IMG/VR virus record: IMGVR_UViG_3300043778_000063
Span: 8,707-72,706 of that record
Length of the DNA stretch: 64,000 nucleotides
Origin: a virus
Reading direction: 5' to 3' (one strand)
The notes under the pieces: generated by a model
The model's database searches: none
What the model was told of the DNA's origin: nothing
The model's input: the letters and a program-made list of their open reading frames with translations, nothing else
Position numbers and translations under genes: made by a program
Part shown: positions 34,587 to 55,571 of the stretch, piece after piece
Layout of the letters: each line of letters opens with the position of its first letter
How positions within the stretch are numbered: position 1 is the first letter of the stretch

Positions 34587-36448
34587 GTGTGCGAAACCAA
34601 AATGTTCGCCGCGGTGAGCTGCGGCACCTGATTCGCGTTGACCTGGATCACGATCTGATCGGCAGATGCCGCAGTGAATACTCCGTTGGTGGTGAGCGCC
34701 GCACCGCTCGACGTCGTGGTGTTGCTCGTCACGTAAACGCCAGCACCGCCGGGCGTGCCGCTGGTTTGGTTGACGATGATGGTATTGGACGGAACGCCGG
34801 TACCGGTCAGAACATTGCCGTTTACAATCACGCCGGTCACAGCCGTCACGGTCAAGTTAAAACCTGATCCCGTGCCCGTGAACGTCGCGCCAAATAGCGT
34901 CTGGGGTTGGTTGACCGTATAGACGCCGACGCCGCCCGGGGTGCCGCTGGTCTGGCCGGTGATATAGGTGGCATTCAGCGTGAGATTGAGCACGTCGAAC
35001 AGCGCATCATTCGTGATCAACGTCCCTGACGTCACCGCAGTGACCGTCAGATTATTCCCGGAAATATTCCCAACCACGACCGCATCGGATTCATTGGCCG
35101 ATCCGATACCGATCGCAGCGACCTGCGCCCATGTCCCCAACGCCGCCACAGCTGGGACGTACTGGATCGCGTATAACTGAGAATTGATCCGCGCCCGCGG
35201 AATCGTCGTCCCGGTGGTGGTGGTCGCCGAAGTCATCGGCTCGCTGGTGACGGTCTGCGCCACGCTGACCGAATAGGTGCCGATTCCTCCGGTCCCGGTG
35301 CCGAAACCGGTGATCGTCGTGTTGGCGACCAGATTGCCGGTGAGGTCATCGATCGTCTGGCCGATTGACAGCGTTCCGGAATTCACCGCGCTGACGGTAA
35401 GCGTCGTCCCCGCCACCGAGCCCGTGAAATTGGCCTGCAGGGATTGCCCCGAGAATGCTGCGAGGATCGCGCTCTGGATCTGGGTCTGGAATGTCGATGG
35501 GACCAGCGGGCCGTTCGCGACCACGATCTTGAACAGCACCTGAAGCGCTGGCGGGATCTCGTAGGTGATCTGGTACGGAACCGGCGCGGAATACAGCGGA
35601 TTCGAATCGTAGACCGTGACCGTGGTGTTTCCCACCATCGGCGAGCCCGGGCTCTTTTTGGACCAAATCGCCTGCGCCACGGCCGCTGGCGCGCCGCCGG
35701 CAACGCAGATGTACGTCGAATAGGCCGCGATCGAGACCCCGTTGATGACCACGGTCCCGTTCGTGGGATTGGCGACACCGTAATAGTCGAGAACCCCTGG
35801 CACCTCGGCGACGGCGCCGATGATGGCACCGACCGGGCCGAAACTGTTGCCGGCGACGCTATCCTGCCGCCGCGTTTCAAATGCCGCGCGGCTCTCGACG
35901 TTGCGTCCGATCGCGCCCGACAGCACCGTGGCGGAATCCCATCCGGGGATGAGCTGCGTCAGGGTCACCGCGGCAGGTACCGCCAGCGGGCCCGGCACCA
36001 CTGCGGCAAACGACAGCGTGATCGCCCCTCCGACTGGGATCGTGCCGGCCTGGACGCACTGATAGAGGTTGTTGTTGATGTCCTGGACCAGCGCGCCGAT
36101 CGGAATTATGACGCCTTGGGCGCCGTTGCAGATGATCTGGAGTGCGGTCGGTTCCGAGGGCTGCCGGGCGAAGCCGGGGATCAGCCGCCCCAGCGCATCC
36201 TGAAACCTGCCGGACGCATAGGCCGGATCGAACTGTTGAGCGTAATAGACCGCAGTCGAATACGTATTGACGACGATCGCGCCCCAGGACTGCGCCAACT
36301 GCCCCTGCGGTGTCGTGAGCCCGTAGTTGAGCGCGCTACCGAACGCGCCGCTGATGTCGAGTTGCACGCCGGCGAGAACGGACGGGCCCGATGGCGCCAG
36401 AAACCCGGCCGACGTCCATTGTATTTGGGGGACCGACGTTCCGGCCAT
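34583..36448 (-). CDS. Baseplate J-like protein with three inserted beta domains
   Basis: [35 protein letters not shown]. Confidence 0.9.
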
Positions 36449-36449
36449 C

Positions 36450-36830
36450 TCATCCGATTCCTTGCGGGTTAATGACGGCGAAACTGGCGAACGAGGTCTG
36501 ACCTGTCGACGCGCTGGTAACCTGGATTTGGCCGGAAATCGAGCGGCCGCTCACCGACGAGATGAAGCACACCGCAGAACCGACATCGGGCACCGTCAGA
36601 GCAGCACCTACGAACAGCCCCTTGATCTGCGCCAACGAAGGATTGCCGCCGAAGACGATACCCAGATAATCGATGCCGAGCGTCGTATCGAAATAGCACT
36701 CCCCAATGAATGTCTTGATCGCCGAGGCGGCATCTTGCGCAAGGGAGTATGGCTCGCTGGCGACCGCGATGTTCCCCGAACTATCGAGGGTCAAATCCCA
36801 TTGGGTTCTGTCCAGCAACAAAGTGCTCAT
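36450..36830 (-). CDS. Baseplate wedge/sheath initiator (gp25-like)
   Basis: [34 protein letters not shown]. Confidence 0.85.
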
Positions 36831-37588
36831 ACCGGCGGCCCCGAATCTCCACCGCCGGTCTGAACTCCGCTATGCACATGAGTGGCCAAACTCTTGCCGC
36901 CGCCGACGACATCGGCCGCAGTGACCGTGCCGGTAAGCACGATGTTCCCAAAATACGTTCCACCCGCCTCGCTCTGTATCGTCCCGCCGAGCTGAAAATT
37001 TTGCGTCACGACAAGCGCTCCGTTGATGGTCACCGGCTGGCCGGACTTCGGCGTGATCGACCATCCTGTCGATGAACTGACTACCATATTTCCGTCGACA
37101 TCGACGAACTTCAAATGACCGTCGGCCGTGAACTGGATGTAGCAGGTTGGGGCCGGGTTCAGGATCGCGCCGACATAGACGCTGTCCGCGAGGTTGTACC
37201 GGCGCCGCGAGCCCGGCAGCGCCGCGGCCTTGGTGTTCTTAACCTTGGACATATCCCGGCTTGCCGCAACGATAAACCCGATGTCCCCCACCACCGGATC
37301 GCAGATGATGGCGTTTTTCCCGCCCTGGATCCGCGACCATGGGATGCCATGCACTGTCCCGTGGGGCGTCCCATAGCCATTGCCGTCAATCTGGCTAATG
37401 AGCGGCTGGACGTCCACCGTGCCAGCCGCTGGCGGCGTTCCCGCGCCTGCGGTGACCGCCAGCACCTTCACCGGTGTCATGGTCGAGATCTTGGCGACGA
37501 CCTGCCGCGCGAGGAACAGCACCGATCGATAGTCGGAGCCCGAATCGTTGGGGGTTTCGTGGCCATAGCCGAATGTGGTGTCGCTCAC
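36827..37588 (-). CDS. Gp138-family baseplate spike
   Basis: VDVQPL, PVVGDIG, R..NLAD, C-terminal THVHSGVQTG. Confidence 0.9.
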   Translation of the reverse strand: MSDTTFGYGHETPNDSGSDYRSVLFLARQVVAKISTMTPVKVLAVTAGAGTPPAAGTVDVQPLISQIDGNGYGTPHGTVHGIPWSRIQGGKNAIICDPVVGDIGFIVAASRDMSKVKNTKAAALPGSRRRYNLADSVYVGAILNPAPTCYIQFTADGHLKFVDVDGNMVVSSSTGWSITPKSGQPVTINGALVVTQNFQLGGTIQSEAGGTYFGNIVLTGTVTAADVVGGGKSLATHVHSGVQTGGGDSGPPV

Positions 37589-38607
37589 ATCCCGCCTCCC
37601 TGCGGCGGGACCGGCGCCGCGAATCCCTTGGGATAGCAGATCATCGTTGCATCCCAGCGCCCCTTGGGGACCAGCGAATCAAGCGCCAACGATAGCCTCT
37701 GCACTACCCAATCGCGATTAGCCTGCGGTACCGCTACGCTGGTGATGTGGATGACACCGCCGAAGGCGATTTGCGGGTTGAACAGCGATTTCACGACCGC
37801 ATAGCCGTTGGGCGCGAAGCTCGGCGCGCCGATCATGCCGGTATCCTTCGACACCAGCGGGACTGGTCCGTTGGTGTTGCGCTGGCTGCCGATCGGCCAG
37901 ATCGCCAGAACCTGCTGGCCTCCGCTGCCGGGCAGGATCTCGGCGTTGATATGCGCGTGCTCGGCGCATTCCCGGATCTGATCCCGCAAGGTACCCGGGA
38001 AATAGCTCGAGGGCAGTTGGATCGTGACACCGTTATTTTCGAATCCGGCCGGGATCTGCCGAGCGAATCCGGCCATGATCGTTGCCACATCGGTCGAGCC
38101 CGGGAAGCTCGATGCGGGGATCGGCACCGTCCCAGCGATCAGTCCAGTCCGGCACTCGAAATGCATGGCCACTTGCGGCATCCCGCTGAAGTCCGGAAAC
38201 GCGAAGGCGATCGTCCCCGTGAACACAGGCGTCAGCCCAGCCTGCGCATCCCCTGCGGATATCGTGATGCTATTTTTCTGGACCATGTCGAAAATCATGC
38301 CGAGCGTCGACAATTGATTCACGAGGTTCGGCGCCAGTCCATAAATCGAGACGGTGGCGCTACAATCCACGCCGCCGCTGTTCTCGATTCGAACCGACGT
38401 TCGGAAACCCGATAGCGTGATCGTATCGGAATCGGTGCCGGCGAATTTATTCGGCTGGTTGGTCTGCTGATTCGCCTGAAGCGAGATCGTCAATTCGATC
38501 AGGCGTTGGACGAAGCTCTGCTGACCCTGGAATGGAGGTTGAGGGGCGATCGTTGAGGTGTCGGTCGTTCCGCCGGTGATGATGACCTTCGTAGGTCCAT
38601 CCGCCAT
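37585..38607 (-). CDS. Baseplate hub protein
   Basis: ATVSIYGL, ISAGD..VFTGTI, TGMIGAP, LFNPQI. Confidence 0.85.
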   Translation of the reverse strand: MADGPTKVIITGGTTDTSTIAPQPPFQGQQSFVQRLIELTISLQANQQTNQPNKFAGTDSDTITLSGFRTSVRIENSGGVDCSATVSIYGLAPNLVNQLSTLGMIFDMVQKNSITISAGDAQAGLTPVFTGTIAFAFPDFSGMPQVAMHFECRTGLIAGTVPIPASSFPGSTDVATIMAGFARQIPAGFENNGVTIQLPSSYFPGTLRDQIRECAEHAHINAEILPGSGGQQVLAIWPIGSQRNTNGPVPLVSKDTGMIGAPSFAPNGYAVVKSLFNPQIAFGGVIHITSVAVPQANRDWVVQRLSLALDSLVPKGRWDATMICYPKGFAAPVPPQGGGM

Positions 38608-38610
38608 GTG

Positions 38611-38931
38611 TCAGCCTCCCGGCAGGTCGGTCGTCTCCAGATAGATCAATTGATAGCGGGTTCCGAGGCCGGTGAACACCGGATCCGACGGGCTGCTACC
38701 GCCCTGGGTGTCCAGAAAGCAGAAATCCCCAACGAATCCGAAATAGGCGTCACGCACGATCCGGTTGAGATTTTCGCAAATCACGCTGCCGACCACCAAC
38801 GAATTGCCGACGAACAGCGTCATGAACATCCCGTAGGTGAGTTGCTGGAGTTCGATCACGCATGGCTGATTCGCGACCTGGACCTGAAAGGTCTGATTCG
38901 GGATCGGCTGGACCGGAATCACCTGGGACAT
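38611..38931 (-). CDS. Baseplate plug protein
   Basis: IPVQPIPNQTF..GFVGDFCFLDTQG..DP..GLGTRYQLIY. Confidence 0.85.
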   Translation of the reverse strand: MSQVIPVQPIPNQTFQVQVANQPCVIELQQLTYGMFMTLFVGNSLVVGSVICENLNRIVRDAYFGFVGDFCFLDTQGGSSPSDPVFTGLGTRYQLIYLETTDLPGG

Positions 38932-39551: not shown

Positions 39552-39552
39552 A

Positions 39553-41246: not shown

Positions 41247-41259
41247 GTGTCTCGCTACA

Positions 41260-42522: not shown

Positions 42523-42534
42523 TTCAGATGCTCC

Positions 42535-44532
42535 TCATTGGATGGCGACGCTCGACAGGCTGATGCTTTGCGCTGAGCCCCTATCAAGGTACCAGAACGT
42601 GATTGCCCACGGTCCACGGTTCAGCCGAATGTTGGTCGCCTGCTGCAGGACCTGGAGGTAGTAGCCCTGAGCCTGCAGCGTGTCGGTGATGTTGAGGCTG
42701 GGATTGCCGGCGTTCGCTCCAGCCTGCGAGTTCACTGCGGCGATTTGTGCCGGAGAAATGGTGCCGGGCGCAAAGGCATTGAAATTGAGACCGGCCTGGA
42801 TCGGCGAAGCCAGCGCGGCCTCGATGAGCGCCGCGCCGACCGTGTTGAACGGGATCGACAGCGAGTTGTTCATCAGGTTGAGCAGCGCGAGTTGCAGGTT
42901 GCTGTTCAGCCAGATCTGATTGACGTAACTGTCGGCCCAAAGGAATGATCCGGTGATGATCCCGCGCTGGAGCCACGTGAAATTGGCATTTCCGGAGCCG
43001 ACGGCACCATAATAATTGTAGCCGTTGCCGCGGTCGCCGAGGACCTGCGGATTGCCACCGATATTGATCGCGGTCTGCCCGGATACGACATCGGAGACCA
43101 AGCCGGTCTGACTTCGGAAGGCGAAATCAGTTCGGCCATTGGTCTGGTTGAAATTGATCGACGCCGCGATTCCCATTACGAAAGCGGCTTGGTTGAGATC
43201 GGTGAGTTCGGAGATCAGGAACGTCCCGGAATCGCCATTGCCGGCTAGAATCTGCCCGAGCGTTTCCGATTGCGGCGGGTTCGACCGCACCAACACGTCG
43301 GTGTCGCCCGGCACGTACATGTAGCGGTTCGGGAACGTGTTTTTCCAAGCGGCAAAGGCTTGCTTGAGCGTGTTTCCGACGCCGCCATCCGGATCCACCG
43401 TGGTCGTATAGGTGGCCCAGTTGGTGGTGATCGCGACCACGGCGTTCATGACACTAGCCGGCGTCGCCGCCGCGGCACCCTGCGAGAGGAACGCGCCGGT
43501 CGCCGAGGTCAGCAGCAGCGAGGCCGCCAGCGTCCCGGTGGCGAATGCCGAGGTCGAGGCGGCTCCGGTGATCCCCGAGGTGATCACGAACGCCCCGGAC
43601 TGGGAATCGAACGTCACCAGGGGAGCAGTCGCGATCGCCGTCATGGCCTCGCTGGCGACCTGCTGTTGCGCACCGCTGAGCCGATAGGTTCCGACGCCGC
43701 CTGCGGGCCCGGTGAGTTGCGCGGTGATCGTCGGCGCGCCCGTGACCCCGGCGCCGACCACGGTCTGGCCGACCACCAGCGACACGACGGATTCCACCGT
43801 GACATTGAGGACCGTGCTCGAGCCGACGCACGCCGCACCGGAGGCAGTGCCGCTCAGGCTGGTGACGTAGACGCCAGCCCCGCCCGTGGTCCCGGAGGTC
43901 TGGGAAACGATCGTGGTGTTCGCCGCGACGCCGGTTCCGGTGACGGTGTCGCCGATCGAAATCAGCCCGGTGACGGCCGTCGTCGTCATGTTGGTGCCGG
44001 CCTGTGTCGCCGTGAAGGTGGCGCCGATGGCCGCGGTAAAGGAGGCCTCCGTCGGATCGGTAAATGCCGCCTGGATCGCGGCAGCAGCGGCCGAGAAGCT
44101 GTTCGATGAGGCCAAACTGATCGACGCGATCGCGTGCGCGTAGCCGTCCATGACGATGTTGAGGGAACCGTTCAGGGCTTGCAGTTGCGCCAGCGTCAGG
44201 GCCGCACCGGCGTTGCCGCCCCACAGATACGCCGCGACGGCGGCGGCATTGTACTGCGCGAACAGCAGCGCGCCCGGCAGCGAATTGGAGTTGGTGAACC
44301 CGCCGAAATAGCCGGTCCCCTTGCCGCCGCCGCCGCCGGCCATCAGGGCTTCCTGGGAGGACGAGCCGAAGAACGCCGCGACCGCCGTGGCGCTCGCGAA
44401 GCTATAGACGGCCCCTAGAGGAACCCGGTTGCTGCCGGTCAGGATCAGGCCATTGAGACTGACGGCCTGGCCGACGGTCGAGAGGACGGATGGGACGACG
44501 TTTACGAAGAGACTCGCAGGAATCGTCGTCAT
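42535..44532 (-). CDS. Tail sheath protein (DUF3383) with two inserted beta domains
   Basis: IPAS..VNVVPSVL, NWAT, GYNYYG, WADSYVNQIWL, WYLDRGS. Confidence 0.92.
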   Translation of the reverse strand: MTTIPASLFVNVVPSVLSTVGQAVSLNGLILTGSNRVPLGAVYSFASATAVAAFFGSSSQEALMAGGGGGKGTGYFGGFTNSNSLPGALLFAQYNAAAVAAYLWGGNAGAALTLAQLQALNGSLNIVMDGYAHAIASISLASSNSFSAAAAAIQAAFTDPTEASFTAAIGATFTATQAGTNMTTTAVTGLISIGDTVTGTGVAANTTIVSQTSGTTGGAGVYVTSLSGTASGAACVGSSTVLNVTVESVVSLVVGQTVVGAGVTGAPTITAQLTGPAGGVGTYRLSGAQQQVASEAMTAIATAPLVTFDSQSGAFVITSGITGAASTSAFATGTLAASLLLTSATGAFLSQGAAAATPASVMNAVVAITTNWATYTTTVDPDGGVGNTLKQAFAAWKNTFPNRYMYVPGDTDVLVRSNPPQSETLGQILAGNGDSGTFLISELTDLNQAAFVMGIAASINFNQTNGRTDFAFRSQTGLVSDVVSGQTAINIGGNPQVLGDRGNGYNYYGAVGSGNANFTWLQRGIITGSFLWADSYVNQIWLNSNLQLALLNLMNNSLSIPFNTVGAALIEAALASPIQAGLNFNAFAPGTISPAQIAAVNSQAGANAGNPSLNITDTLQAQGYYLQVLQQATNIRLNRGPWAITFWYLDRGSAQSISLSSVAIQ

Positions 44533-44611
44533 TTTCGGGATCTCCGGGCGATAGTTCCCAATTCAGGTGCTGCGAGCGATAACACGATATGCCAGAATCC
44601 ACAATTACGGA

Positions 44612-45361
44612 CTACGGAAGCGGATATTTCGCATCCACACTCACCGGGGTAAGGACGGCGCTGTCGGCGAAGGTTTGTGGGACAGAAATGACGATATTCG
44701 ACTGTAAAATGCATTCCGAGACCCAACGCCACTCGATTTGCGATTCCTCATTCAGGAACGGCATCTGGCGCGCATCATCGGCGTAGAGTGGCGCCACGCC
44801 GTAATAGGGCGATTGTCCCTGAAATTGCAGCACGGCGAATTCATCCCGGAACAGGGCGCTCACGGTCGCCGCCATATCGCCGGCCGAACTCAAATCAGCA
44901 CTATGGAAATCGAGTTGGATCGTGTGCTTGGTCGGCATCATGATTTGCTTGGTGCCGGTCGAGATGGTCAGCGGCCCAACGGTCTGGGGTGGGGATACCG
45001 TATAGGTCCCGATCTGGCCAGTTCCGGTCAGGATCGCGCTCACCGAGGTCCCGGCCGTGATCCCGACGCCGAAGATGGTGCCGCCGACCCCGATCTGCGC
45101 GTTCGGAAACTTGGGATTCACTGCGGTGATCGTCAAAGTCGTTCCGGCGATCGACCCCGTGAACACGCCATCGGCGTAGCCATCGACGTTCGTCTCAAGC
45201 CGCTCCTGGCGGATCTGCGTCATCACGACAAAATCGACCCCGGCAGGCTCAGGCACCCGGTTCTGCTGCGCTGGAACCACCACGACACCGGCCGGCAGGA
45301 CCGATAGCAAAAAGCTCCGGAGTTGCGCGAAGACGTTCGACTGGGTTGGCGATGGTGTCAT
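44612..45361 (-). CDS. Neck/tail terminator protein with inserted beta domain
   Basis: [25 protein letters not shown]. Confidence 0.82.
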
Positions 45362-45402: not shown

Positions 45403-46722
45403 TCATGGACCAAATCCAGACGCAAATCCAGACGGGACAGGCTGTGTCAACTGAGAGGCCGAAAAGTTTGACGTTAGTTGGTCGCCCGTGGCCTCAATCA
45501 TAGCTATCGGATATCGCTTTCCGGTACCTAGCGGACCCGTGCTTACTCCGCCAACTCCAGTGGACGGGTTAGCTGATCCGTTACCGTTCCAAGATTGCGC
45601 CACGCCTGATCTAACTCGCCGAAACCAAGCCAAGTTAGCCGTAAAATCCTGACATTCCTGTATGATGTCGCCACCTGTCCACGTCGCCGCCGCTGCTAAT
45701 GTCGTTCCGTTTATTTCTATCGCGCCAGTGTCGAAGTATCCGATGCTGTTATTGTCTCCGGTCCCTGGCTGGAACGCGCCATTGTATTCGTTGGCGGTAT
45801 TGACCAATCCGACAATTAGAAGATTGTTGAAGGCGTCTGCCGAGATTTCCCAACAGTACTTTCCAGACGAGACGCCTGGGAACCCTCGCACTTGACGATT
45901 TCCAAAACCGGATAAATTAGTGATAGTTCGATTGCCATTCGAAAGCACACCCGATGATGCGATATCGATCGGACTGAATGTCAAAGGCGCCTGAATTTGG
46001 GTTCCAGGGTGCTTCATGACGCTGACTATTTGAGGCTCGGCAATCGTTGCTAAGGTATAATACCCGAGCGCCGTGAGGTGCACACAGTCCGATTGATAGT
46101 AGGTTGCGTTGCAAGCGCCAGCTTGCGTGGAAAACGCAGGGTTGGCAAAAAAATCCACGAGTGCGTCGGCACTAAGATCCGAGTTCCAATACGATCTGAT
46201 AAGCCCATTTAGGCTTATGATCGTCGGCATTTCCTGCGTCGTATCGTTGGAGTTATTTCTTGCAATCAAAGTGGCGATAGTTACACGCTGAAATCCCGCC
46301 GCCCGCGCATCTGCGATAATGCTACGTAAGGTCACGTAGATCGCTGAGGCGCTGGTACCGCTGTTGACATCATTTGTCCCGGCGAACAGAATTTCAACAT
46401 TAAGCGCCTTCGTCGCATCGAAATCGGAGACGTATTGCGATGGATAATTGGCTAAAATAGTCGCTGCGGTGATCCCGCTCACGCCATGGTTGAGCGTCGT
46501 GTAGGCGGGACCGTGAGGCAACAGGAACGAGACTTGATCTGGGTAATCGAATGGCGGCGAAACGAATAAACCCGCCGTTAAGCTGTCACCCACGTAAGTC
46601 AGTTTGACGCTCGATGGAAGCCCCGATCCACTCATGATAAGCAGACGACAGGCCCCGGTGCAGGCTCTGGTCTCCGACAGGAACGCCAGAGTTACAAATA
46701 GGGCGATCAGAATTTTCCTCAT
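45403..46722 (-). CDS. Secreted SGNH/GDSL hydrolase with SPRY/B30.2-like domain
   Basis: Signal peptide; GDSLT, GVSG, GTND, DCVH; SSGKYCWE..GDII..D..WF..PSGF. Confidence 0.85.
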   Translation of the reverse strand: MRKILIALFVTLAFLSETRACTGACRLLIMSGSGLPSSVKLTYVGDSLTAGLFVSPPFDYPDQVSFLLPHGPAYTTLNHGVSGITAATILANYPSQYVSDFDATKALNVEILFAGTNDVNSGTSASAIYVTLRSIIADARAAGFQRVTIATLIARNNSNDTTQEMPTIISLNGLIRSYWNSDLSADALVDFFANPAFSTQAGACNATYYQSDCVHLTALGYYTLATIAEPQIVSVMKHPGTQIQAPLTFSPIDIASSGVLSNGNRTITNLSGFGNRQVRGFPGVSSGKYCWEISADAFNNLLIVGLVNTANEYNGAFQPGTGDNNSIGYFDTGAIEINGTTLAAAATWTGGDIIQECQDFTANLAWFRRVRSGVAQSWNGNGSANPSTGVGGVSTGPLGTGKRYPIAMIEATGDQLTSNFSASQLTQPVPSGFASGFGP

Positions 46723-47570
46723 GGATCGCTCACATAGGGAGGTCGGTTTTTATATGGATTGTTCGCCGGAAGATTTGACCCGTTTTTCCCGTCATACCAA
46801 CTTTCCCACCCCTCCAGTTTAGCAACCTCGCTAGCCGTCAGAACCCTGTTGAAACAAAATGCTTGTTGGATGACGCCCGTGAATGGCGAGCCACCATTCG
46901 AGTTTGCCCCGATAGCACCTCCGGCAGTTCCGGTGGCTGGCGTGCTCAGCGTTGCTGTTTGGGTGACCCCGTCTGCAGTGACGGATGCGGCCGTTCCATT
47001 CTGATTCCACACGATCATTCGATCAACCGAACTCCACCCGAAGGTTGTGAAAAAATCGCTCGTAAAGAGGCCGGCGTCGATCGTGCTGCCTGAAACACGA
47101 AGCATTCTCCAACTAAGATTTGATCCATTGTAACCGTATCCAAACACGCCGACTGTGTTTGTCGTGGCATATGCTGCCAGAGCCAGCGATCCGGGGGACG
47201 CGCCGGAAGGAAACCCAGTTTGCGCAAACGAGAGAAATTGGCTCCCGTTGAAAGTAAGACCAGGTTTTCCGTTCCTGGCGGTAGTGCTATAACCGGGCTG
47301 AGCAGATCCAGTTACTTGCGTTGCCGCAATGCCAGATGCCTTATCAGACCATGATGAAACTGTCGTGCTGTTGAATATTATGCTTGGAAAATTCTGCGCG
47401 TCCCACCACGCTACGAGGGACGACCCAATGTTCAGCGGTGTCCACAGTTTATTGCCACTCATCAGCAACAACCGCCGCCCACTCTGCGCATCCGCCGATC
47501 CGAACCCAAGCGCCAGCAGCTCGGATACCGCCAGTGCGGCTACGACAGTGATGGAAGACCGCCGGCGCAT
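46719..47570 (-). CDS. Secreted LamG/concanavalin-like protein
   Basis: Signal ..SADA|Q; LVAWWDA..VSSWSDK..NGKPGL..NRVLT..KLEG..LPANNPYK. Confidence 0.75.
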   Translation of the reverse strand: MRRRSSITVVAALAVSELLALGFGSADAQSGRRLLLMSGNKLWTPLNIGSSLVAWWDAQNFPSIIFNSTTVSSWSDKASGIAATQVTGSAQPGYSTTARNGKPGLTFNGSQFLSFAQTGFPSGASPGSLALAAYATTNTVGVFGYGYNGSNLSWRMLRVSGSTIDAGLFTSDFFTTFGWSSVDRMIVWNQNGTAASVTADGVTQTATLSTPATGTAGGAIGANSNGGSPFTGVIQQAFCFNRVLTASEVAKLEGWESWYDGKNGSNLPANNPYKNRPPYVSDP

Positions 47571-47571
47571 C

Positions 47572-48174
47572 TCAATTCTCTTTGTAGGTTCGCAGGAAAT
47601 ACGAATGCTTTTCGCTGGCGATCGGCGTGTAGGCGCCGATCTCTTCCATGGCATAGATGGTCGCTTGCGGTTCTTGCGATGGAATCGGCTGCATGGTCGT
47701 CAGCATCAGACTCGAGCCGGAGCATTCCGAGAAATATTGCGCGGTGGCATCGTTCGTCGGCTGCCACGCCGAGCAGGTAAGATTCCCAAGATAGATGTTG
47801 GCGGCGAGGTCGGCGGCGTAGGGGCCCACGTAGGCGCTACCATCGACGAGGCCTGTCGTGGTCGGCTTGGCAGAATAGAGCCACAACGTCGACGTCCCCG
47901 GCTTGTTGGTGCCGTTCGAATAGATGAGCGCCTTGATCGTGAGCGCCTGACCGGCGGGAACGCTGTTGAGAACGATCGGCGACGCCACGGCGCTGCCACT
48001 ATTGTTCAGCGCGAATAGTTGATTCCCCGTGTATGGAGTCGTCCCGGCGAAGTGCGTCGTGCTCCCGAGCCCATTGTAGGCGGTCTGGGAAAACGCTGCC
48101 GAGGCGAACATGATCAGCCCGAGGACGACGTAGGCGACGGTCAGCCACGTTTTCAACGTTGATTTCGGTTTCAT
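47572..48174 (-). CDS. Secreted hypothetical (probable virion appendage) protein
   Basis: Signal ..ASAAFS|QTAY; beta-rich body. Confidence 0.65.
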   Translation of the reverse strand: MKPKSTLKTWLTVAYVVLGLIMFASAAFSQTAYNGLGSTTHFAGTTPYTGNQLFALNNSGSAVASPIVLNSVPAGQALTIKALIYSNGTNKPGTSTLWLYSAKPTTTGLVDGSAYVGPYAADLAANIYLGNLTCSAWQPTNDATAQYFSECSGSSLMLTTMQPIPSQEPQATIYAMEEIGAYTPIASEKHSYFLRTYKEN

Positions 48175-49082
48175 GTTTCGACTTCCGTTTTGCAGGGCGC
48201 GCTGTCCAAGGTCTTTGCGAGTCTTCGTTTCCGTTCTACGGCTTTGACCCAAGAAGCCCTGATCGTTATGCCTTCTGAGATTAAAACCCTACGAATTTCT
48301 CTGCGGCCAGCTCCATATTTCCTGACAATGAAATCGACGCTTTTGCCATCTAAGTATTCGGATACGATCAATTTTGCATCTGTTATTATAGATTTAGCCC
48401 TACTGCCCAATGGGTGAATTTTTATCCCGGCACCAATCACAATATTACGTATCGCATCATCATGGGTATGATATATTTTCTTGAGGGTGGCAGTCCCCTT
48501 ACCGGATGCATACAGTGCTATGATTTCTGATTTGATTTGATCCGAAGCGATATTTTCAAAACAATTGGACGGCTTCTTTCCTGTTCTTATGGCCGATATC
48601 TTAGTTCTGAATTCTGGCGAACGCTTTCCTGGACTGCCTTTTCCGCCGCGCTTCGCTGATGCAGCTTTTTCTCGGGCGGATGCTGACCATACGCGCTCCC
48701 GATTTGATTTGGCAGTTCTTTCCCGCTGATCTTTCGAAGGTGATCTTCTAGGGCTATTGGCTGACATTTTAGCCCTGGCTTCATCCGACTGTTTCGTGCC
48801 TAAACGGCTTCCGGCAATAAGGCATGAATTATAATTTGGCTTCAAAATATCGATAGCGCGCTGCTCAAACATCAATAAGTCTGATGGACGACATACCAAA
48901 AGTCGAATGAAGCTCAGATTCTCTAATCCATATTTGTTGCAAGCGCGTTGAAGTGCTCGGCTGTGATGAATGCCCCTCCGCAAATGGGATTTGTGCATGT
49001 ACCATCGCATATTGAAATTGACCGCACTTCCGACGTAGAATCCGCCAGATGGTGATTTGATCTGGTAAATTCCAGAATTCAT
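48171..49082 (-). CDS. GIY-YIG homing endonuclease with NUMOD3-like repeats
   Basis: SGIYQI..FYVGSA..RW..H..L; GTKQSDEARAKMS; low GC. Confidence 0.92.
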   Translation of the reverse strand: MNSGIYQIKSPSGGFYVGSAVNFNMRWYMHKSHLRRGIHHSRALQRACNKYGLENLSFIRLLVCRPSDLLMFEQRAIDILKPNYNSCLIAGSRLGTKQSDEARAKMSANSPRRSPSKDQRERTAKSNRERVWSASAREKAASAKRGGKGSPGKRSPEFRTKISAIRTGKKPSNCFENIASDQIKSEIIALYASGKGTATLKKIYHTHDDAIRNIVIGAGIKIHPLGSRAKSIITDAKLIVSEYLDGKSVDFIVRKYGAGRREIRRVLISEGITIRASWVKAVERKRRLAKTLDSAPCKTEVET

Positions 49083-49083
49083 C

Positions 49084-49686
49084 TCAGTTTCCATTCTGCA
49101 AGGTGATCACACATTTTGTCCATCCAGCAGTCAGCCCCCAAGGCTCAGGGACCAGCGTCACAAGCCACACTGTTCCGTCAGGCAATCGTATCAGATCGCC
49201 ACCCTTGAGCAAAACGCGCACCACTCCGTTCAGCGTTCCCGACACATAAAGCGCGCGCATTTCTCCCTGAAGGTTGAGCCCTTCCGTCTGATGGAGATCG
49301 CGCGTTGATAATGCCTGGACCTGCCCGATCAGGTTGAGCGCGGTGGTCATCGCCTCCGAGGCGATGGGCGTCGGCTGGATTTGGCTGAGGAGGTAGGTTC
49401 CGAGCCCCCCGGTGGTTCCCGTCAGTTGCGACGTGATCGTGGTGGCCGGCAGCAGCGCTCCGGCGTCGGATAGCGTCTGGCCGGCCTGCAGGACCCCGCT
49501 GGCGACGTTGGTGACGGTCAGGACATCGCCCGAGACCGAGGCAGTGATTGCGCCTGGGGTGGCGAACGAGGGCGCCTGACTGCCATCTGGATTCTGCGCG
49601 CCGGGCCCGGTGCTGATCTGGACAGTCACCGGGATCAGAGGGTTGACCGCACCGACGTAGGGAGAAACGAGGCCGTGAAGGTTGAT
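49084..49686 (-). CDS. Head closure/neck protein with inserted beta domain (probable ATC start)
   Basis: (I)NLHGLV..GAVNP..ISTG; QVQALS..DL..GLNLQG..KGGDL..WLV..E.W..W.K..LQ. Confidence 0.8.
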   Translation of the reverse strand: MNLHGLVSPYVGAVNPLIPVTVQISTGPGAQNPDGSQAPSFATPGAITASVSGDVLTVTNVASGVLQAGQTLSDAGALLPATTITSQLTGTTGGLGTYLLSQIQPTPIASEAMTTALNLIGQVQALSTRDLHQTEGLNLQGEMRALYVSGTLNGVVRVLLKGGDLIRLPDGTVWLVTLVPEPWGLTAGWTKCVITLQNGN

Positions 49687-49696
49687 CGCAGCCTCC

Positions 49697-50338
49697 TCAA
49701 TTCATTCCAAATACCTGCAAAAATGCGAATATCGCATCGGTGGCCGTCGCCGCATTGATCGTCACCGCAACCGAGATCGCGGCGGACTCGTTCAGCGTGA
49801 GCAATGAAAATGCGGTGAGCGTGGCTAGATCCGCGCCACATTGACCGGCTTCGTGGATCGCGATTTGCGTATTCGAACCTGCGGCGCCATACTTGAACAC
49901 ATTGGCCGTGAGTTGCCAGCCGCCTGCCGAGGTCGTGGTGACGGGACCAAGTGCGGCGACAGTCGTGCCGCCGCTGACAATTGATCCAACGGCCGGCGCC
50001 GTCGCACCCATGATGATTTTGAACGTCTTGCTGGTCGCATTCAGTGCCGAGCCGGCTGCCATGATGTTGATGCCGCGATTCGCGATATCAAAGGCACCAA
50101 CCGGAATACTCCCCACCGCCACCACATAGTCGCTCCCGGTCCCTGCAGGATTTCGACCGGCCGCTATGGTCTGAACGATCAGATTGCCGTCATCGCCCAT
50201 CTGCAACGGGTTGTTGGCATTGGCGCCGAATGTTGCAGCACCGTTACCAAGCGATGCCCCGATCGCGGCAGCTTGGGCAGCGTTCAGATTGACATCGCCA
50301 AGCGACGACCAAAGCACGAGGGAACTTTTGAGGGCCAT
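49697..50338 (-). CDS. Probable virion structural protein
   Basis: Ala/Gly/Thr-rich beta protein within head-neck block; AGGAG RBS. Confidence 0.65.
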   Translation of the reverse strand: MALKSSLVLWSSLGDVNLNAAQAAAIGASLGNGAATFGANANNPLQMGDDGNLIVQTIAAGRNPAGTGSDYVVAVGSIPVGAFDIANRGINIMAAGSALNATSKTFKIIMGATAPAVGSIVSGGTTVAALGPVTTTSAGGWQLTANVFKYGAAGSNTQIAIHEAGQCGADLATLTAFSLLTLNESAAISVAVTINAATATDAIFAFLQVFGMN

Positions 50339-50381
50339 GGTAGAACTCCTTCAGGTTTGCTCTGGGCGCCGAGGCGAATGA

Positions 50382-50891: not shown

Positions 50892-50912
50892 AGGACCCTC
50901 CTCAGGTTGGGT

Positions 50913-51446
50913 TTACGTCACTTCGTGGCTGATCGACCCCAGGAGCATCCCTGTCCAGACCAAAGGTTTGGTCGAGGTGCCGGCCGAAGCCGTGTGACCC
51001 TGGGCGACCAAGCCGCGAGCCGCTGCGACATCTCTAGCACGAATGTCCCAAGGATTCGTCCAGAAAAACTCGCGCAGGACCAGCGTGACAGGGCTAAGGG
51101 GCGGCGTGTTCGTGTCCACGATCGATTGCCGCAATTGACCGGCAATGCCCTCGCCGACCATGTTGAGCGTCGCGGTCGCATCGTAGCCGTTGGCGACCAG
51201 CAGCGCGCCAGCGGCCGGGCCCCATTCATGGCTTTTGGCAGCGATCATGTTGCGGAAGAACGGCCGCGGGGGAATGCCAGCGCGGGGGGCACCGAATTCC
51301 TGTATGGCGGCCACAGTGGCTACCTTGGTGCCGTTGGGATAGGTCGCGTTCTCAAGGAATCCGACCTTGACGGTCTGCGCCGACGTTACGGCACCGGCCA
51401 TCTTCTGCAATTGGGCTTGGAATTTGTTCCCGCCGCGGACAGGCAT
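50913..51446 (-). CDS. Neck/tail completion protein
   Basis: VKVGFLENATYPNG..VA..QEFG..IPPRPFFR..KPLVWTG. Confidence 0.85.
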   Translation of the reverse strand: MPVRGGNKFQAQLQKMAGAVTSAQTVKVGFLENATYPNGTKVATVAAIQEFGAPRAGIPPRPFFRNMIAAKSHEWGPAAGALLVANGYDATATLNMVGEGIAGQLRQSIVDTNTPPLSPVTLVLREFFWTNPWDIRARDVAAARGLVAQGHTASAGTSTKPLVWTGMLLGSISHEVT

Positions 51447-51449
51447 GGT

Positions 51450-51953
51450 TCAATATCCGCCGCGCCACCGGCCGCCATACGGGAAGAGCAAGCTGTTTTC
51501 TGGCAGGATCGTCGGCTGCGCGACGTAGAAACCCTGCCGATAATTTGCGCTGGCAAACCAAAATTCTGCACCATAGCGCGTGGTCATAAACCATGCCTGC
51601 GACGGCGAGCCCTCGTTGGCGTCCCCCATGTCGGCACCCACCGACACCGAGCCCTCCGAGGCCGTGTTGATTCGCCCCACGATCGGCGAGGCGGGCTGGC
51701 CGGTCGCGGCCGGGTTTCCGAACGCATCCCGCGGCGCGTTGAGCCACGCGATGTGCGCCGTCAGCAGGTAGAGCAGCCCCGTCAGTATCCCGCCGGTCGG
51801 GTCCTGCTGATAGGCCGGGTTGCAGGTATCGTTGCTGCAGAAATTGGTGGCCCGGTTGAACCACGCCTGCGCCGCCACCGGGTTCACAGCCGAGAACTCG
51901 CCGAATTGCGCGATCCAGTCCGTGAATACGAATGTGATCGCTGGCGTCGTCAT
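51450..51953 (-). CDS. DUF4054 head-tail adaptor
   Basis: LLYLLTAHIA..VGRINTASEGSVSV..WF.TT.YG..FW. Confidence 0.9.
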   Translation of the reverse strand: MTTPAITFVFTDWIAQFGEFSAVNPVAAQAWFNRATNFCSNDTCNPAYQQDPTGGILTGLLYLLTAHIAWLNAPRDAFGNPAATGQPASPIVGRINTASEGSVSVGADMGDANEGSPSQAWFMTTRYGAEFWFASANYRQGFYVAQPTILPENSLLFPYGGRWRGGY

Positions 51954-52306
51954 TCCGCAGCCTGATCGGTGACTTTTGGTTCCTGCTCGGTCTTGTCCTC
52001 GTTCTCGCCTGCCAGCGCGTTGTCTCCGAGCATCTTCGCTTTGAATGCGCGCACTGCCGCAGTCTCGGCGCGGATTGCCACTTCAATTGCCTTCGCGCCC
52101 TTGGCCTCTTCCATGAGCTCGGCCGCCGCAGCCACGACGCCGAGTTCTACCTGATCAATGACCTGCTTGACCTGGTCGAACATGGCACCGAGCCTTCCCG
52201 CCAACCGCTTCCCACCGATCTCCTGAGGCATCATCACGTCCTTCAAAGGCGCCGCCAGAACGCGGTCAAGTTCCTGACTCTTCGCGAGCGTCTCCGCGAA
52301 GGTCAC
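51950..52306 (-). CDS. Hypothetical helical protein
   Basis: GTG start coupled to upstream stop. Confidence 0.6.
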   Translation of the reverse strand: MTFAETLAKSQELDRVLAAPLKDVMMPQEIGGKRLAGRLGAMFDQVKQVIDQVELGVVAAAAELMEEAKGAKAIEVAIRAETAAVRAFKAKMLGDNALAGENEDKTEQEPKVTDQAAE

Positions 52307-52659
52307 AGCGTAGGGTTTGACTTGGCTTCCTCCTCGAGGAGAAAGATCTGCTTCAGTTGGACGGCCGGGTTCAGCCTGTTCTGCGCCAGCCATTTGCCCC
52401 ACCATTCCGCGTCGACGTCCGTGATCCCAGGCTCAAGATCGTCCGGACTAGTGTTGCCGGCTCCCGTGTGCAGAGGGGACGGACCGTTGAGCCGGATGCC
52501 GGGTCCATCATGGACCGTCGGCTTGACGCCGGTGCCGTCATCCCAACCCACTTTCGAGAGACGGATTGCGACGCCGTTCGGGATGCGGCAGGCGATGCGC
52601 ACCGTCTTCCGTTCCGGCTGCATCTCGCTAGACGCCTTTTCTTGGTCTGGTTTCAACAT
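52303..52659 (-). CDS. Hypothetical protein, paralogue of upstream gene
   Basis: VRIACRIPNG..IRLNG..GITDVDAEWWGKWLAQN..IF. Confidence 0.75.
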   Translation of the reverse strand: MLKPDQEKASSEMQPERKTVRIACRIPNGVAIRLSKVGWDDGTGVKPTVHDGPGIRLNGPSPLHTGAGNTSPDDLEPGITDVDAEWWGKWLAQNRLNPAVQLKQIFLLEEEAKSNPTL

Positions 52660-53317
52660 CGCTGACCTCTTCCCGGGTGGGCTTGGCGAACGCCCTGATG
52701 CGCGGATCGGACTTCGGATTGATCGGCTCCAGGCCACTCAGGATCGCCGCCTGTTCGGTCGCCTGCCCGCGCACCATATCCTCTTTTTCATGGGCGAAGA
52801 TCAACCCATTCATCACGAGCGCGCTGCGCTTGTTCTGGTCCAACCACTGATCGAACCAGTCCTTGTCGATCCCGTAGTTCAGCGCGGCGCCGCCGACCAT
52901 GACCGGAGGGTCGGGAAATTCCGATGGCTTCGCGCCTCGAGGATAGGCCGTGCCGCGGAGCCGGACAACTGACCCGGTCCGCCGTCCCTGCATCCGCTTC
53001 CGCGAGCCGGTCTGCGTCTCCTCGTTGACCTCGATCATCTCGCAAAGCTGCAGGTTGACATACGGCACGCCGATCTTGCAGGCGACGATCACCTTTGCGC
53101 CGGCGCGCTGGGGCTGCGCGACACCCCCAGAGGCGGCCGCAACGGCGCCAGGATCAGCGAACGCCTTCTGATTCAGCGCCTGGATTTGCTCGGATGTCGG
53201 GCCATTGGATTCGCGTGGAGCGGCGCCTGCCATTTCGGCCCGGGCCTGCGCGGCGCCCTCGGCCCGCAGACGATCCTCACGCTCTGCTCGCTTCTGCTTG
53301 GCCGTCAGTGTCGACAT
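52628..53317 (-). CDS. Conserved post-capsid protein
   Basis: VIVACKI..VRLRG..GIDKDWFDQWLDQN..NGLIFA..SGLEPI. Confidence 0.8.
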   Translation of the reverse strand: MSTLTAKQKRAEREDRLRAEGAAQARAEMAGAAPRESNGPTSEQIQALNQKAFADPGAVAAASGGVAQPQRAGAKVIVACKIGVPYVNLQLCEMIEVNEETQTGSRKRMQGRRTGSVVRLRGTAYPRGAKPSEFPDPPVMVGGAALNYGIDKDWFDQWLDQNKRSALVMNGLIFAHEKEDMVRGQATEQAAILSGLEPINPKSDPRIRAFAKPTREEVSDVETRPRKGV

Positions 53318-53342
53318 GATCTCTTCCCTTCGTTGTGAGCCC

Positions 53343-53369
53343 GCCTCTCCACGTTATATATGGAGAGGC
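53343..53369 (-). terminator. Stem-loop downstream of major capsid gene (terminator/attenuator or stabiliser)
   Basis: GCCTCTCCA-9 nt-TGGAGAGGC perfect 9-bp stem; no strong U tract. Confidence 0.5.
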
Positions 53370-53427
53370 TAAGGCTTCATACACAATTTTCCCCGGGAAG
53401 GGTTTCGATCCACGCCCTCGTGAGCGA

Positions 53428-54540
53428 CTAAACGCCGAGCATCCCAGCTATGCCAACCGGCATTCTCGTGACAACACCGAAGATCCCGCTCGTGTATTTC
53501 TGCAGCCAACTTGAGGCCTGCGGGATCAGTTTGTGTGCGCGGAGCTTCTCGTTGTAGGCTGGATAGGCGACTTTGCCGCCATCGATGTTATCGACGATGA
53601 TCTGAAACACGTTCCCGATGGCGGAATCGCCCTGGGTGTTGTTGGTGGTTTTCTGCCCGTACTGCGGCGCGGGGACAATTTTCATGTTCGGGAAGCCGCG
53701 CTTCAGGAGATCCTTGACGAAGACGCCGAACGAGTTCGCGAATTCCAGGGCAAGTTGCGACTGCGGCGATAGCGCCAGCGTCATCGGCGAGTCCATCTCA
53801 ACCGCACCGTTGGTCTGATTGATGATCTGCTCGACCACCGCCAGGATGTCGTTGTAGACCTCGTTGGCAGTTGCGGCCGGCGAGCCGGCGTTGAACCATG
53901 ATGTCCCGCCCCACGCCTTGATGGCGGGCGTCAAAAACGCCGAGAGGTACGGGTTGTTGATCAAGCCGTAGTTCTGCAGGCCAGCCAGGCCGAAGGCATA
54001 TCCGAGGTTTCCGAATCGATTGAGCAATCCGGCCGCAGCGCTGGTGAGTTCGCCGACGTAGTTGATCCGCATCAAGCCGGCGCGCTCGGTCTCCCGCTCG
54101 CCGTAGTTGACGAAGGTCTGGAACAGATAGGACTGGAGTTGCGGGTAATTGAAGTTGATGCCGGTGCGGCCGTTGTTCGAATAATCGTCGTAGCTGGAAA
54201 CTTCGCCGTTCTCCTCGATGACCGGGAAGATGTAGGTTTCCATTAGCCAGTCGCCGACCTTGCGCTCACCACCGAGGATCTTGGCGATCTGCAGCGGGGC
54301 AAATACGAACCGGATCACATCCGGGCTGATGCCGGTGGTGAGCATCGCGGGGAGCGCCGCATTCGGATCGGTGCCCAAGGTGCCGGCGGCATCGAACGCC
54401 ATTTGTCTGAGCGACTTGTCCCCCGTGTTCTTCCACTCATCGGGAATGAACATTCGGGCGCCATCGAAAATAACCCCGCCCTCGTGGTTAAGGACGTGCC
54501 TCACCTTGTTAAACTCGGCGATTGCTTGGTTCCGGTCCAT
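53428..54540 (-). CDS. Major capsid protein (DUF2184)
   Basis: GE.KVGDW, E..GEVSSY.DYS, QSYLFQT..YGERE, YGLINNP. Confidence 0.92.
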   Translation of the reverse strand: MDRNQAIAEFNKVRHVLNHEGGVIFDGARMFIPDEWKNTGDKSLRQMAFDAAGTLGTDPNAALPAMLTTGISPDVIRFVFAPLQIAKILGGERKVGDWLMETYIFPVIEENGEVSSYDDYSNNGRTGINFNYPQLQSYLFQTFVNYGERETERAGLMRINYVGELTSAAAGLLNRFGNLGYAFGLAGLQNYGLINNPYLSAFLTPAIKAWGGTSWFNAGSPAATANEVYNDILAVVEQIINQTNGAVEMDSPMTLALSPQSQLALEFANSFGVFVKDLLKRGFPNMKIVPAPQYGQKTTNNTQGDSAIGNVFQIIVDNIDGGKVAYPAYNEKLRAHKLIPQASSWLQKYTSGIFGVVTRMPVGIAGMLGV

Positions 54541-54605
54541 CGATGAAGCTCCTGCTTTCCCGTTTCAATCCGCCTCAAACGAGACGTCAAAAAGTGACAA
54601 CCCTA

Positions 54606-55571
54606 TCAGTTACCGCCGGCGTCCTTGAACGAACTGATCTTCACGGGCTCGAGCGGCAGGCCAGTCGAGCGCGCGTAGAAGGCGGTTTCGACCGCGAGGC
54701 TGGCTACAATCGTATTCGATGTGACGGTTTGGGTCGGATTCACGGCCATCGTTCCGCCCGTGCCGCCCGTGCCCGTGATATTGGCGGTGATCGTGGTGCC
54801 AGCCACGACAGTCGGGCCAGTAAGCACATCCCCCACCGCGAATGTTCCGGTCGCGGTACCGATGGTCAGGATTCCATAGGTGCCTGAAATCGTCTCTGAT
54901 GCGGCCGTGATCTCACCCACGTTAAGGGAATATGTTCCCACTCCTCCGGGAGTTCCAGTCAATTGGGCCACGATCAGCGGAGCCGGTGCGGTCGGTATCG
55001 AAGTGCCGGAAATTGCAGCTCCAGGTGTGACGGTGCCAGAACCGACGTTCGTGACCGTCATGATATTGCCGGAGATCGAACCGGTCACCGAGAACGTGGC
55101 CGGAGCGATGGTGCTGGTCGTCGCCGAGGCGCCACCGAAGGCTGTCCCGGTCGGTGCGAACGCCACCTTGCCGGTAGCAACGAATGCGAATGCTTTCTGG
55201 CCGTACTCAGCCTCGGTAGTACCGTCGTTCTGAACTGCGAAGTCGCCGGCGATCTGCAGCGCCGTCTGAGCGCCTGGTTGGACTTGCAAGCCGGCATTTG
55301 AGAGGAACGTCGTGTTCAGTGCCTGCTGCACGCCAAGCAGGAAGCCATTCGGAGGCCCGTTGCCGAAGCTGTTCGCGATGGTCGGGCCACCGTTCGGATC
55401 CAGCGGCGGGGTCACCCACGCGAAACGGCCGACGAAGAGCGACGCTCCAGATACCAGCCCGCCAGGGCCGGCATCGAAACTGAAGAGCGGATTCACACTC
55501 GTTCGATTGCCTGGAATAAATGCCGCAGGTTGCACGGCCACTTGGACCTGCCAGCCGCCCGTTCCGCTCAT
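54606..55571 (-). CDS. Capsid cement/decoration protein with two inserted beta domains
   Basis: QPA..PG..S.NP..AG.GGLV..VGRFAW..P.GF..GDF; between scaffold and MCP. Confidence 0.82.
   Translation of the reverse strand: MSGTGGWQVQVAVQPAAFIPGNRTSVNPLFSFDAGPGGLVSGASLFVGRFAWVTPPLDPNGGPTIANSFGNGPPNGFLLGVQQALNTTFLSNAGLQVQPGAQTALQIAGDFAVQNDGTTEAEYGQKAFAFVATGKVAFAPTGTAFGGASATTSTIAPATFSVTGSISGNIMTVTNVGSGTVTPGAAISGTSIPTAPAPLIVAQLTGTPGGVGTYSLNVGEITAASETISGTYGILTIGTATGTFAVGDVLTGPTVVAGTTITANITGTGGTGGTMAVNPTQTVTSNTIVASLAVETAFYARSTGLPLEPVKISSFKDAGGN

Follow-up and report, generated by a model that had tools for sequence, protein, structure and literature searches.

A single unnamed protein domain of about 68 residues, rich in Thr, Ser and Gly, occurs nine times in five virion proteins encoded by a 64,000-nucleotide stretch of an uncultured virus, IMG/VR record IMGVR_UViG_3300043778_000063. 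This stretch, referred to here as the window, comprises bases 8707-72706 of a 72.7-kb record (estimated 94% complete) and belongs to a soil-type myovirus. All five open reading frames (ORFs) lie on the minus strand, and the copies are divided among baseplate J (three), a DUF3383 sheath (two), the neck/tail terminator (one), a phrog_1912 head protein (one) and an XM1-gp53-like cement protein (two). We read the domain, with a probability of roughly 0.55, as an old, optional and site-specific module that decorates the exterior of the virion and makes weak multivalent contacts with polysaccharide, a reading in which we infer fold, exposure and binding.

The nine segments were confirmed as copies of one domain family. 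They align over about 70 columns with pairwise identities of 27-51%, with the exception of one pair, bpJ_3 of baseplate J and sheath_1 of the sheath, which are 67% identical; the DNA of this pair aligns with a mean column identity of 74% and many third-position differences. A hidden Markov model (HMM) built from the nine copies and run against six-frame translations of the window and of the whole 72.7-kb record returned exactly these nine plus one partial match. Because a test with a model built from all nine copies is circular, the HMM was rebuilt five times, each time without all copies of one protein, and scored on the six-frame translation of the window. These leave-out models recovered nine of nine copies, with independent E-values (i-E) from 8.8e-6 for cem_2 to 3.8e-19 for hc_1. 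The additional partial match spans 22 residues (E about 1e-3) in the first third of the domain model, at amino acids (aa) 145-166 of an early-region ORF at 13981-14577 on the plus strand; it is regarded as a chance match, too short to count as a copy. The host proteins and copies are listed below, each copy with its i-E against the nine-copy HMM and then against the leave-out HMM.

34583..36448, minus strand: baseplate J-like wedge protein, 621 aa, three copies at two insertion sites (Pfam Baseplate_J and phrog_6)
35213..35437, minus strand: bpJ_1, aa 338-412, site A (7.4e-24; leave-out 1.6e-15)
34883..35086, minus strand: bpJ_2, aa 455-522, site B (6.5e-24; leave-out 1.6e-14)
34664..34891, minus strand: bpJ_3, aa 520-595, site B (found with the nine-copy HMM; recovered in the leave-out test)
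42535..44532, minus strand: DUF3383-type tail sheath, 665 aa, two-copy insertion (Pfam DUF3383, PF11863, 1.5e-87, 295 bits)
43837..44046, minus strand: sheath_1, aa 163-232 (4.3e-19; leave-out 2.3e-13)
43627..43845, minus strand: sheath_2, aa 230-302 (1e-21; leave-out 1.6e-9)
44612..45361, minus strand: neck/tail terminator, 249 aa, one inserted copy (Pfam PF23961 and NCBIfam NF047498)
44954..45172, minus strand: term_1, aa 64-136 (1e-21; leave-out 4.4e-10)
49084..49686, minus strand: phrog_1912 'head protein' in the neck-gene region, one copy (phrog_1912, 8.5e-20)
49336..49557, minus strand: hc_1 (3.3e-26; leave-out 3.8e-19)
54606..55571, minus strand: minor head/cement-like protein, 321 aa, two C-terminal copies (phrog_2122 minor head protein, 1.1e-19)
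54879..55097, minus strand: cem_1, aa 159-231 (5.2e-23; leave-out 4.5e-15)
54666..54890, minus strand: cem_2, aa 228-302 (2.3e-16; leave-out 8.8e-6)

Outside the copies, the host proteins have recognizable cores. Baseplate J matches Pfam Baseplate_J (PF04865) at 2e-10 over aa 84-347, with 40.8 bits against a cut-off of 21.1, and phrog_6 (baseplate wedge) at 8.8e-35. The sheath aligns with the PDB sheaths 9b42 gp32 and E217 gp31 (504 aa) only at aa 29-195 and 355-628. The terminator matches Pfam Phage_tail_terminator_9 (PF23961) at 1.5e-16 in two stretches (60.9 bits, cut-off 27) and the NCBIfam phage neck terminator NF047498 at 3.9e-11 (42.8 bits, cut-off 28). Pfam and NCBIfam scans gave no match for the head protein. 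Likewise, the cement-like protein (P0005) had no Pfam match at E<=0.1, including to PF23982 XM1_gp53_minor_capsid and PF22758 Phage_cement; it is assigned as a cement protein on account of its phrog_2122 match, its position adjoining the major capsid gene, and an N-terminal core that is 36% identical (E 8e-17) to that of a relative, P0054, which matches both XM1_gp53_minor_capsid and Phage_cement. An earlier note, made from the letters of the window, had described nine copies of one family inside five otherwise recognizable virion proteins. The leave-out HMMs bear this out for every copy, removing the concern that the copies might fail to align significantly, the HMM, Pfam and PHROG matches do so for the host proteins, and the coordinates given there agree with ours to within about 35 bases. 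The protein called head closure there corresponds to the phrog_1912 'head protein' encoded among the neck genes.

The domain is an accessory module: judged by sequence comparison, host proteins exist with and without it, and its copy number varies. Using the sheath protein we retrieved 80 viral loci (40-97% identity) and 30 loci in named bacterial genomes or metagenome-assembled genomes (MAGs), giving 110 related loci. Alignment with orthologues that do not carry the domain revealed clean insertions at fixed points. The terminator and the sheath have a single such site each, baseplate J has two, and that of the head protein is close to its N-terminus; in the cement protein the copies come after the conserved core and are followed by a short C-terminal tail. 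The sheath insertion is missing from orthologues of 505-516 aa, and terminator orthologues of 177-201 aa have about eight residues in its place. Orthologues without the domain were found for all five host proteins and no family model in the local libraries covers it, so that it is not, as had been considered, an already characterized constant part of these proteins. Among complete ORFs at the 110 loci, copy numbers were distributed as follows.

Cement protein, 39 complete ORFs: 6 with no copy, 5 with one, 24 with two, 4 with three
Head protein, 72 complete ORFs: 59 with no copy, 13 with one
Terminator, 86 complete ORFs: 34 with no copy, 39 with one, 13 with two
Sheath, 84 complete ORFs: 14 with no copy, 21 with one, 46 with two, 3 with three
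Baseplate J, 63 complete ORFs: 15 with no copy, 33 with one, 8 with two, 7 with three

At the 28 loci with complete ORFs for each of the five proteins, totals run from 0 to 10 copies, which places the nine of the window near the top, and a tree of 87 sheath cores from which the domain had been removed requires at least 16 changes of copy-number state. A sixth host, without a counterpart in the window, occurs in some relatives. It is a small protein whose N-terminus resembles a signal peptide and which has one copy of the domain and a conserved C-terminal part (L004:825-1502, L005:7258-7848, L024:1710-3119, L039:3775-4374, L040:9117-9764 and L060:391-981). At L004 the gene for this protein lies between those of the head/neck protein and the terminator.

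The best matches among 50,697 cultured phage records were the Burkholderia thailandensis phages PE067, phiE131, phiE058 and the vB_E series, with identities to the window of about 42% for the sheath, 48-50% for the terminator and about 45% for baseplate J. The matches cover the core parts only; since none of the 173 sheath, 39 terminator or 255 baseplate J records covers at least 80% of the query, the closest cultured phages are without the domain at these sites. Domain-bearing prophages were found in Bradyrhizobium, Rhizobium, Roseomonas and Rhodopila, and also in MAGs labelled Terracidiphilus, Acidothermaceae and Verrucomicrobia, and versions without the domain in Acetobacter, Gluconobacter, Achromobacter, Bordetella and Frateuria. 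The sheath relative of highest identity among named bacterial assemblies (70% over residues 362-665) is at L082, on a very short contig of a MAG labelled Terracidiphilus, and a second short contig of the same MAG (L086) gave a sheath match of 57% across almost its entire length. These matches hint at an acidobacterial host, although contigs of 1.6-2.4 kb such as these could be binning errors.

Covariation among the copies predicts a small, closed, six-stranded antiparallel Greek-key β-barrel. Mean-field direct coupling analysis of 1267 distinct copies (effective number 1006) gave 38 pairs above the maximum of five column-shuffled control alignments, and 32 of these fall into eight antiparallel ladders or turns; column shuffling ignores relatedness, but the regularity of the ladders is itself a check. 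The ladders connect strands 1 and 2, 2 and 5, 5 and 4, and 4 and 3. The last strand is long and has two partners, strand 1 for its first half and strand 3 for its second, which would close the barrel in the order 1-2-5-4-3-6.

The history of the copies was examined with a tree of 169 non-redundant copies over 71 columns, in which many forks are unresolved. Copies group by host protein and position and not by genome: the label requires 27 changes on the tree compared with a mean of 95.9 after shuffling, and none of 200 shuffles was as low. This clustering by site spans phages whose sheaths are only 40-70% identical. A clade supported at 96% unites 36 of the 38 terminator copies, and the two exceptions, which come from locus L013, fall among sheath and cement copies. 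Head-protein copies group together, baseplate copies 1 and 2 make up a clade of 28 rows, sheath_2 sits with cement copies, and bpJ_3 sits with sheath_1. When two near-identical relatives were left out, each of the nine copies in the window scored higher to copies in the same protein elsewhere (best match 72-106 bits, 57-84% identity) than to its own-genome paralogues (39-84 bits, 44-67%). Since copies cluster by site across phages and lie nearer to same-site copies than to paralogues, the spread among proteins is old, and the domain therefore entered its host proteins ahead of the diversification of this phage clade. Copies are still being gained and lost today, perhaps with occasional exchange among sheath, baseplate and cement proteins. 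Copies from the bpJ_3 and sheath_1 sites intermix on the tree in several other phages too, which suggests that exchange between these two sites is repeated or old.

These results bear on two explanations that would give the nine copies a more trivial or a more recent origin. The earlier note had attributed them to domain shuffling within the genome and had suggested a tree of copies as a test of within-genome expansion. All nine do belong to one family, bpJ_3 and sheath_1 are unusually close, and some cement and sheath copies intermix on the tree, points that speak for shuffling. For recent events, however, the tree is not in agreement with this origin: copies cluster by site across phages, nine of nine lie nearer to same-site copies in other phages than to paralogues (otherwise only 27-51% identical), and the 67% pair differs at many third-codon positions and has the same affinity in other phages. 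We thus consider it very improbable that the copies arose by recent shuffling in this genome. That Thr/Gly-rich, low-complexity stretches only seem to align is a proposition to which we give practically no weight. Half of the residues are indeed T, S or G, and tblastn with the cement tandem found no match in cultured phages with the low-complexity filter on, a negative possibly due to the filter. Yet the matches run through the full 70 positions in a fixed register with the leave-out E-values given above, the covariation ladders are consistent with a fold, and the invariant Gly and Tyr positions are conserved at 93-97%.

The domain is nearly uncharged. T, S and G account for 50% of residues, K and R for 1.1%, D and E for 1.9% and aromatic residues for 4.3%, and charged residues amount to 3.1% in the copies of the window compared with 8.3% in the cores of the same five proteins. 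Along the strands, positions that are 90-100% hydrophobic alternate with positions that are 75-92% Thr or Ser, from which an uncharged, hydroxyl-rich barrel surface would follow. The most conserved feature is a Gly-rich turn between strands 4 and 5 that ends in Tyr, its glycines and Tyr being conserved at the 93-97% already noted; this Tyr covaries with core positions. Aromatic residues are located mainly at positions 3, 42 and 52, and positions 3 and 52 also covary with the core. No hypervariable patch, charged patch or conserved aromatic face was seen in the copies. In addition, no reverse transcriptase was found in the virus record, so the domain is not the target of a diversity-generating retroelement.

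The location of the copies on the particle can be considered by analogy with the E217/PB1-type myovirus virion (PDB 8FUV, 8FVG and 8FRS), whose sheath gp31, tube gp32 and cement gp24 are, in the available part of the published description (PMC10329688), of the same protein types as those found here. The cement relatives match Phage_cement (E217 gp24/Pam3 gp6), and the tube protein of the window matches Pfam E217_Gp32. In contrast to the proteins in the window, the solved E217-type proteins are without the domain, and the sheath has 504 aa rather than 665 aa. The accessible text of the same report describes an E217 sheath with pyocin-like domains B and C plus an extra domain A, and cement trimers that protrude from the surface at threefold and quasi-threefold positions (PMC10329688). 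A survey of sheaths, in the portion available, places additional domains at a distance from the core that contacts the tube, and names adhesion or stabilization as possible roles (PMC9230969). By this analogy, the copies are inferred to lie on the outside of the virion. For a rough estimate we assume a T=9 head as in E217, with 540 cement subunits, and about 18 sheath rings (a 490-aa tape measure at ~1.5 Å per residue and the E217 ring rise of 40.8 Å). The head would then bear roughly 1080 copies and the sheath about 216, with a few dozen more on neck and baseplate.

The domain is not covered by the family and structure databases searched. In a local library, Pfam had no family over the domain in the five proteins (E<=0.01) or in isolated copies (E<=10), and NCBIfam named only the terminator core. 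In PHROGs the domain appears only as an internal piece of phrog_21413 and of the tail-fibre family phrog_38233. PDB sequence searches with profiles of 9 and of 142 copies gave nothing better than E 0.15, the hits being antibody light chains and latrotoxin, which are noise. No description of the domain was found in the literature on E1 FCCH, DUF3383, immunoglobulin (Ig)-like domains, decoration and tail sheath, outside subscription journals. Two other families were considered. PF25919, which is absent from the local Pfam and from the searchable papers, is unlikely as a general model because newer precomputed Pfam annotation places it on only 3 of 120 hits, and all 120 carry the domain. The relative P0025 scores 1.5e-7 to FlgD_tudor as a sum of weak partial matches of which no single stretch passes, and this was treated as compositional.

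A profile search of 1.84 billion cluster representatives, of the kind that had been recommended from the outset, revealed a widespread domain, with matches in 7521 representatives at E<=1e-3, of which 2583 pass E<=1e-10 and 115 pass E<=1e-30. Tandem arrays, of up to 29 matched stretches, are present in many of these proteins. In 44 representatives scanned with Pfam the domain was never covered, and its partners were XM1_gp53/Phage_cement (6), tail-fibre Collar (2) and, in one representative each, DUF3383, Baseplate_J, terminator, a pectate-lyase-like domain, RHS, FN3 with Gly_rich_2, and EGF_2. A further 16 giant proteins added F5/8 type C, GLEYA/PA14, Laminin_G_3, PATR, Fib_succ_major, NHL, He_PIG, FG-GAP and E1_FCCH. 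The lectin-like, tail-fibre collar and pectate lyase partners fit an extracellular, matrix-facing role. In five whole bacterial genomes with related prophages, 21 of 21 domain matches fell inside prophage regions.

We propose that each copy, set into a loop of its conserved host protein or, where the host is the cement protein, placed after the conserved core near the C-terminus, would project outside from capsid, neck, sheath and baseplate rim, with roughly a thousand copies per virion. Together the copies would form an uncharged, hydroxyl-rich coat, and this coat may make weak multivalent contacts with polysaccharide in the form of host capsule, exopolysaccharide or biofilm matrix. Each copy has its orthologue at the corresponding site of other phages, so the arrangement is old and maintained.

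Two other roles for an exterior domain were weighed against this proposal. One is structural reinforcement, where the domains contact neighboring subunits, cement capsid, neck, sheath and baseplate and raise stability in harsh environments. One host protein is itself a cement protein, and the review of sheaths, as far as its available text goes, includes stabilization through extra-domain contacts among its hypotheses (PMC9230969). Nevertheless, close relatives differ freely, at each of the sites, in whether they have the domain and in how many copies, which argues against load-bearing contacts; versions without the domain exist, including those of the closest cultured phages for sheath, terminator and baseplate J; and fibres and giant surface proteins contain this domain in long tandem arrays. 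We therefore regard reinforcement as unlikely. We are similarly doubtful of an inert coat with no specific ligand, either a hydrated layer that cuts non-productive sticking to clay, humics and debris or a set of rigid spacers. Here the scarcity of charged (3%) and aromatic (4.3%) residues, the conservation of alternate strand positions as Thr/Ser without hypervariability, and arrays of up to 29 copies that look like stalks in giant proteins would all be accommodated, and since the copies present no aromatic or charged face this reading keeps some weight; the co-occurring lectin-like and fibre domains also fit adhesion. The same absence is a point against polysaccharide binding, for what is most conserved in the domain is glycines, core hydrophobics and a single core-covarying Tyr, and not the conserved aromatic or charged patch usual in carbohydrate-binding modules; an even covering of Thr/Ser would be just as compatible with an inert hydrophilic coat, or with sites for glycosylation. 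Other points weigh against the proposal as well. The fold is predicted from covariation and the exterior exposure from analogy, and Pfam, NCBIfam and PDB searches gave no solved structure or family model to serve as a functional precedent. Finally, the domain occurs in soil-type hosts and is missing in Acetobacter, Bordetella and Burkholderia phages, a pattern that is confounded with phylogeny.

The genes for the five host proteins belong to a complete myovirus structural module that takes up the minus strand of the window between about 24 and 58 kb. The series opens with a NUDIX-protease fusion and a scaffold-like protein and goes on to the cement-like protein, the major capsid protein and the neck genes. 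Next come a GIY-YIG endonuclease, a virion protein resembling lectins and a GDSL esterase, after these the terminator, the DUF3383 sheath and an E217-gp32-like tube, and then chaperones, tape measure, baseplate hub and wedge (including baseplate J), fibres and endolysin. The NUDIX-protease fusion is a single 423-aa ORF (56978-58249, minus strand) with an N-terminal NUDIX hydrolase and a C-terminal DUF2213/prohead-protease-like domain. The GIY-YIG/NUMOD3 homing-endonuclease gene (48171-49094, minus strand) lies between the head/neck protein and the next virion gene, and overlaps the end of the head-protein ORF by 11 bases. At the other end of the head-protein ORF, the first canonical start is a GTG at 49629, and the conserved N-terminus reaches further upstream (region 49629-49701). 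An ATC codon at 49686-49684 stands where orthologues, which begin M-N-L-H, have Met, and GAGGAGG is located 5 nt upstream of this codon; the gene probably starts at this non-canonical ATC, at 49686. Between the neck genes and the terminator (45403-47654, minus strand) are a GDSL/SGNH esterase of 439 aa and a virion protein of 311 aa with a weak match to concanavalin-A-like lectins/glucanases. The predicted functions of these two genes suggest that the particle interacts with polysaccharide.

Accessory virion domains affect where phages dwell and how hosts are reached. To our knowledge, nearly all work on them has dealt with the Ig-like domains of enteric phages. A broader interpretation, which we put forward only tentatively and hold with well under even confidence, is that the domain represents a new small-barrel family serving as a tunable whole-virion coat and that few phage surface modules as widely distributed as this one still lack both a family model and a solved structure. 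If this were true, soil and rhizosphere phages would raise or lower the number of copies at six loop sites, setting the stickiness of the virion and its movement in polysaccharide and soil matrices. The natural variants, with 0 to 10 copies per structural module in a well-sampled clade, provide a ready comparative series for the study of such coats in soil. The domain is also a clear candidate for the building of a new family model and the solving of a first structure, and it marks permissive insertion sites in cement, neck, sheath and baseplate proteins.

Among known phage modules, the FCCH-like domain is close in its predicted form. The available part of a report on the siphovirus tail tube proteins gp39 and gp13 describes it as an outward-facing domain of ~70 residues that forms a six-stranded, closed, antiparallel Greek-key barrel (PMC13576161). 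The domain studied here resembles E1_FCCH (PF16190) in its size of ~70 residues, in its fusion to phage structural proteins and in its occurrence in the same giant proteins. The earlier suggestion of an E1-FCCH comparison holds insofar as the predicted strand order fits the verbal description of FCCH; the six-stranded Greek-key barrels of EF-Tu domain 2 and of the FAD-binding domain of ferredoxin reductase match the predicted barrel too. A language-model feature search, which otherwise gave unnamed clusters, ranked an E1_FCCH cluster 27 and 24, with scores of 0.87 and 0.86, which serves as a lead only. At the level of sequence the comparison does not hold: the PF16190 HMM (gathering score 29.5 bits) matched neither any of the nine copies nor the whole virus record at E<=10, and a profile comparison by hhalign, with 142 copies on one side and 90 phage FCCH-like domains of 63 proteins on the other, gave a probability of 0.44% and E 0.13 over 18 aligned columns. 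Membership of PF16190 was therefore rejected by every sequence test made. In P0170 (aa 795-856), P0053 (aa 786-852) and P0082 (aa 1493-1556), E1_FCCH-type modules, two of them above the Pfam cut-off, are separate from the arrays of the ~68-aa domain, indicating that two small barrels are used side by side.

The Ig-like domains of phages, such as Big_2, FN3, I-set and T4 Hoc, provide a parallel in arrangement. As described in the available portions of two sources, they are optional, exchangeable β domains on capsid decoration, tail and baseplate proteins, with a proposed role in adhesion (PMC9230969, PMC10385173), and weak carbohydrate binding has been suggested for those on other phages (PMC9230969). 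Accessory β domains on phage structural proteins are thus already known as a kind. The domain described here differs in several respects. HMMs of the Ig family (Big_2, FN3, I-set and He_PIG) had no match in the five proteins at E<=0.01 or in the nine copies at E<=10, in agreement with the initial impression that the consensus is not a Big/FN3/I-set pattern. Ig-like domains are two-sheet sandwiches of about 85-100 residues, whereas the covariation ladders of this ~68-residue domain would close into a barrel. What is new is a domain family with no model or solved structure, unlike Ig-like domains in sequence and apparently in fold class, and its presence as one family at six sites distributed over five proteins between capsid and baseplate, in a large clade. 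If the proposed coat is real, it would be a soil counterpart of the adherence ascribed to Ig-like domains and Hoc, built from a different fold.

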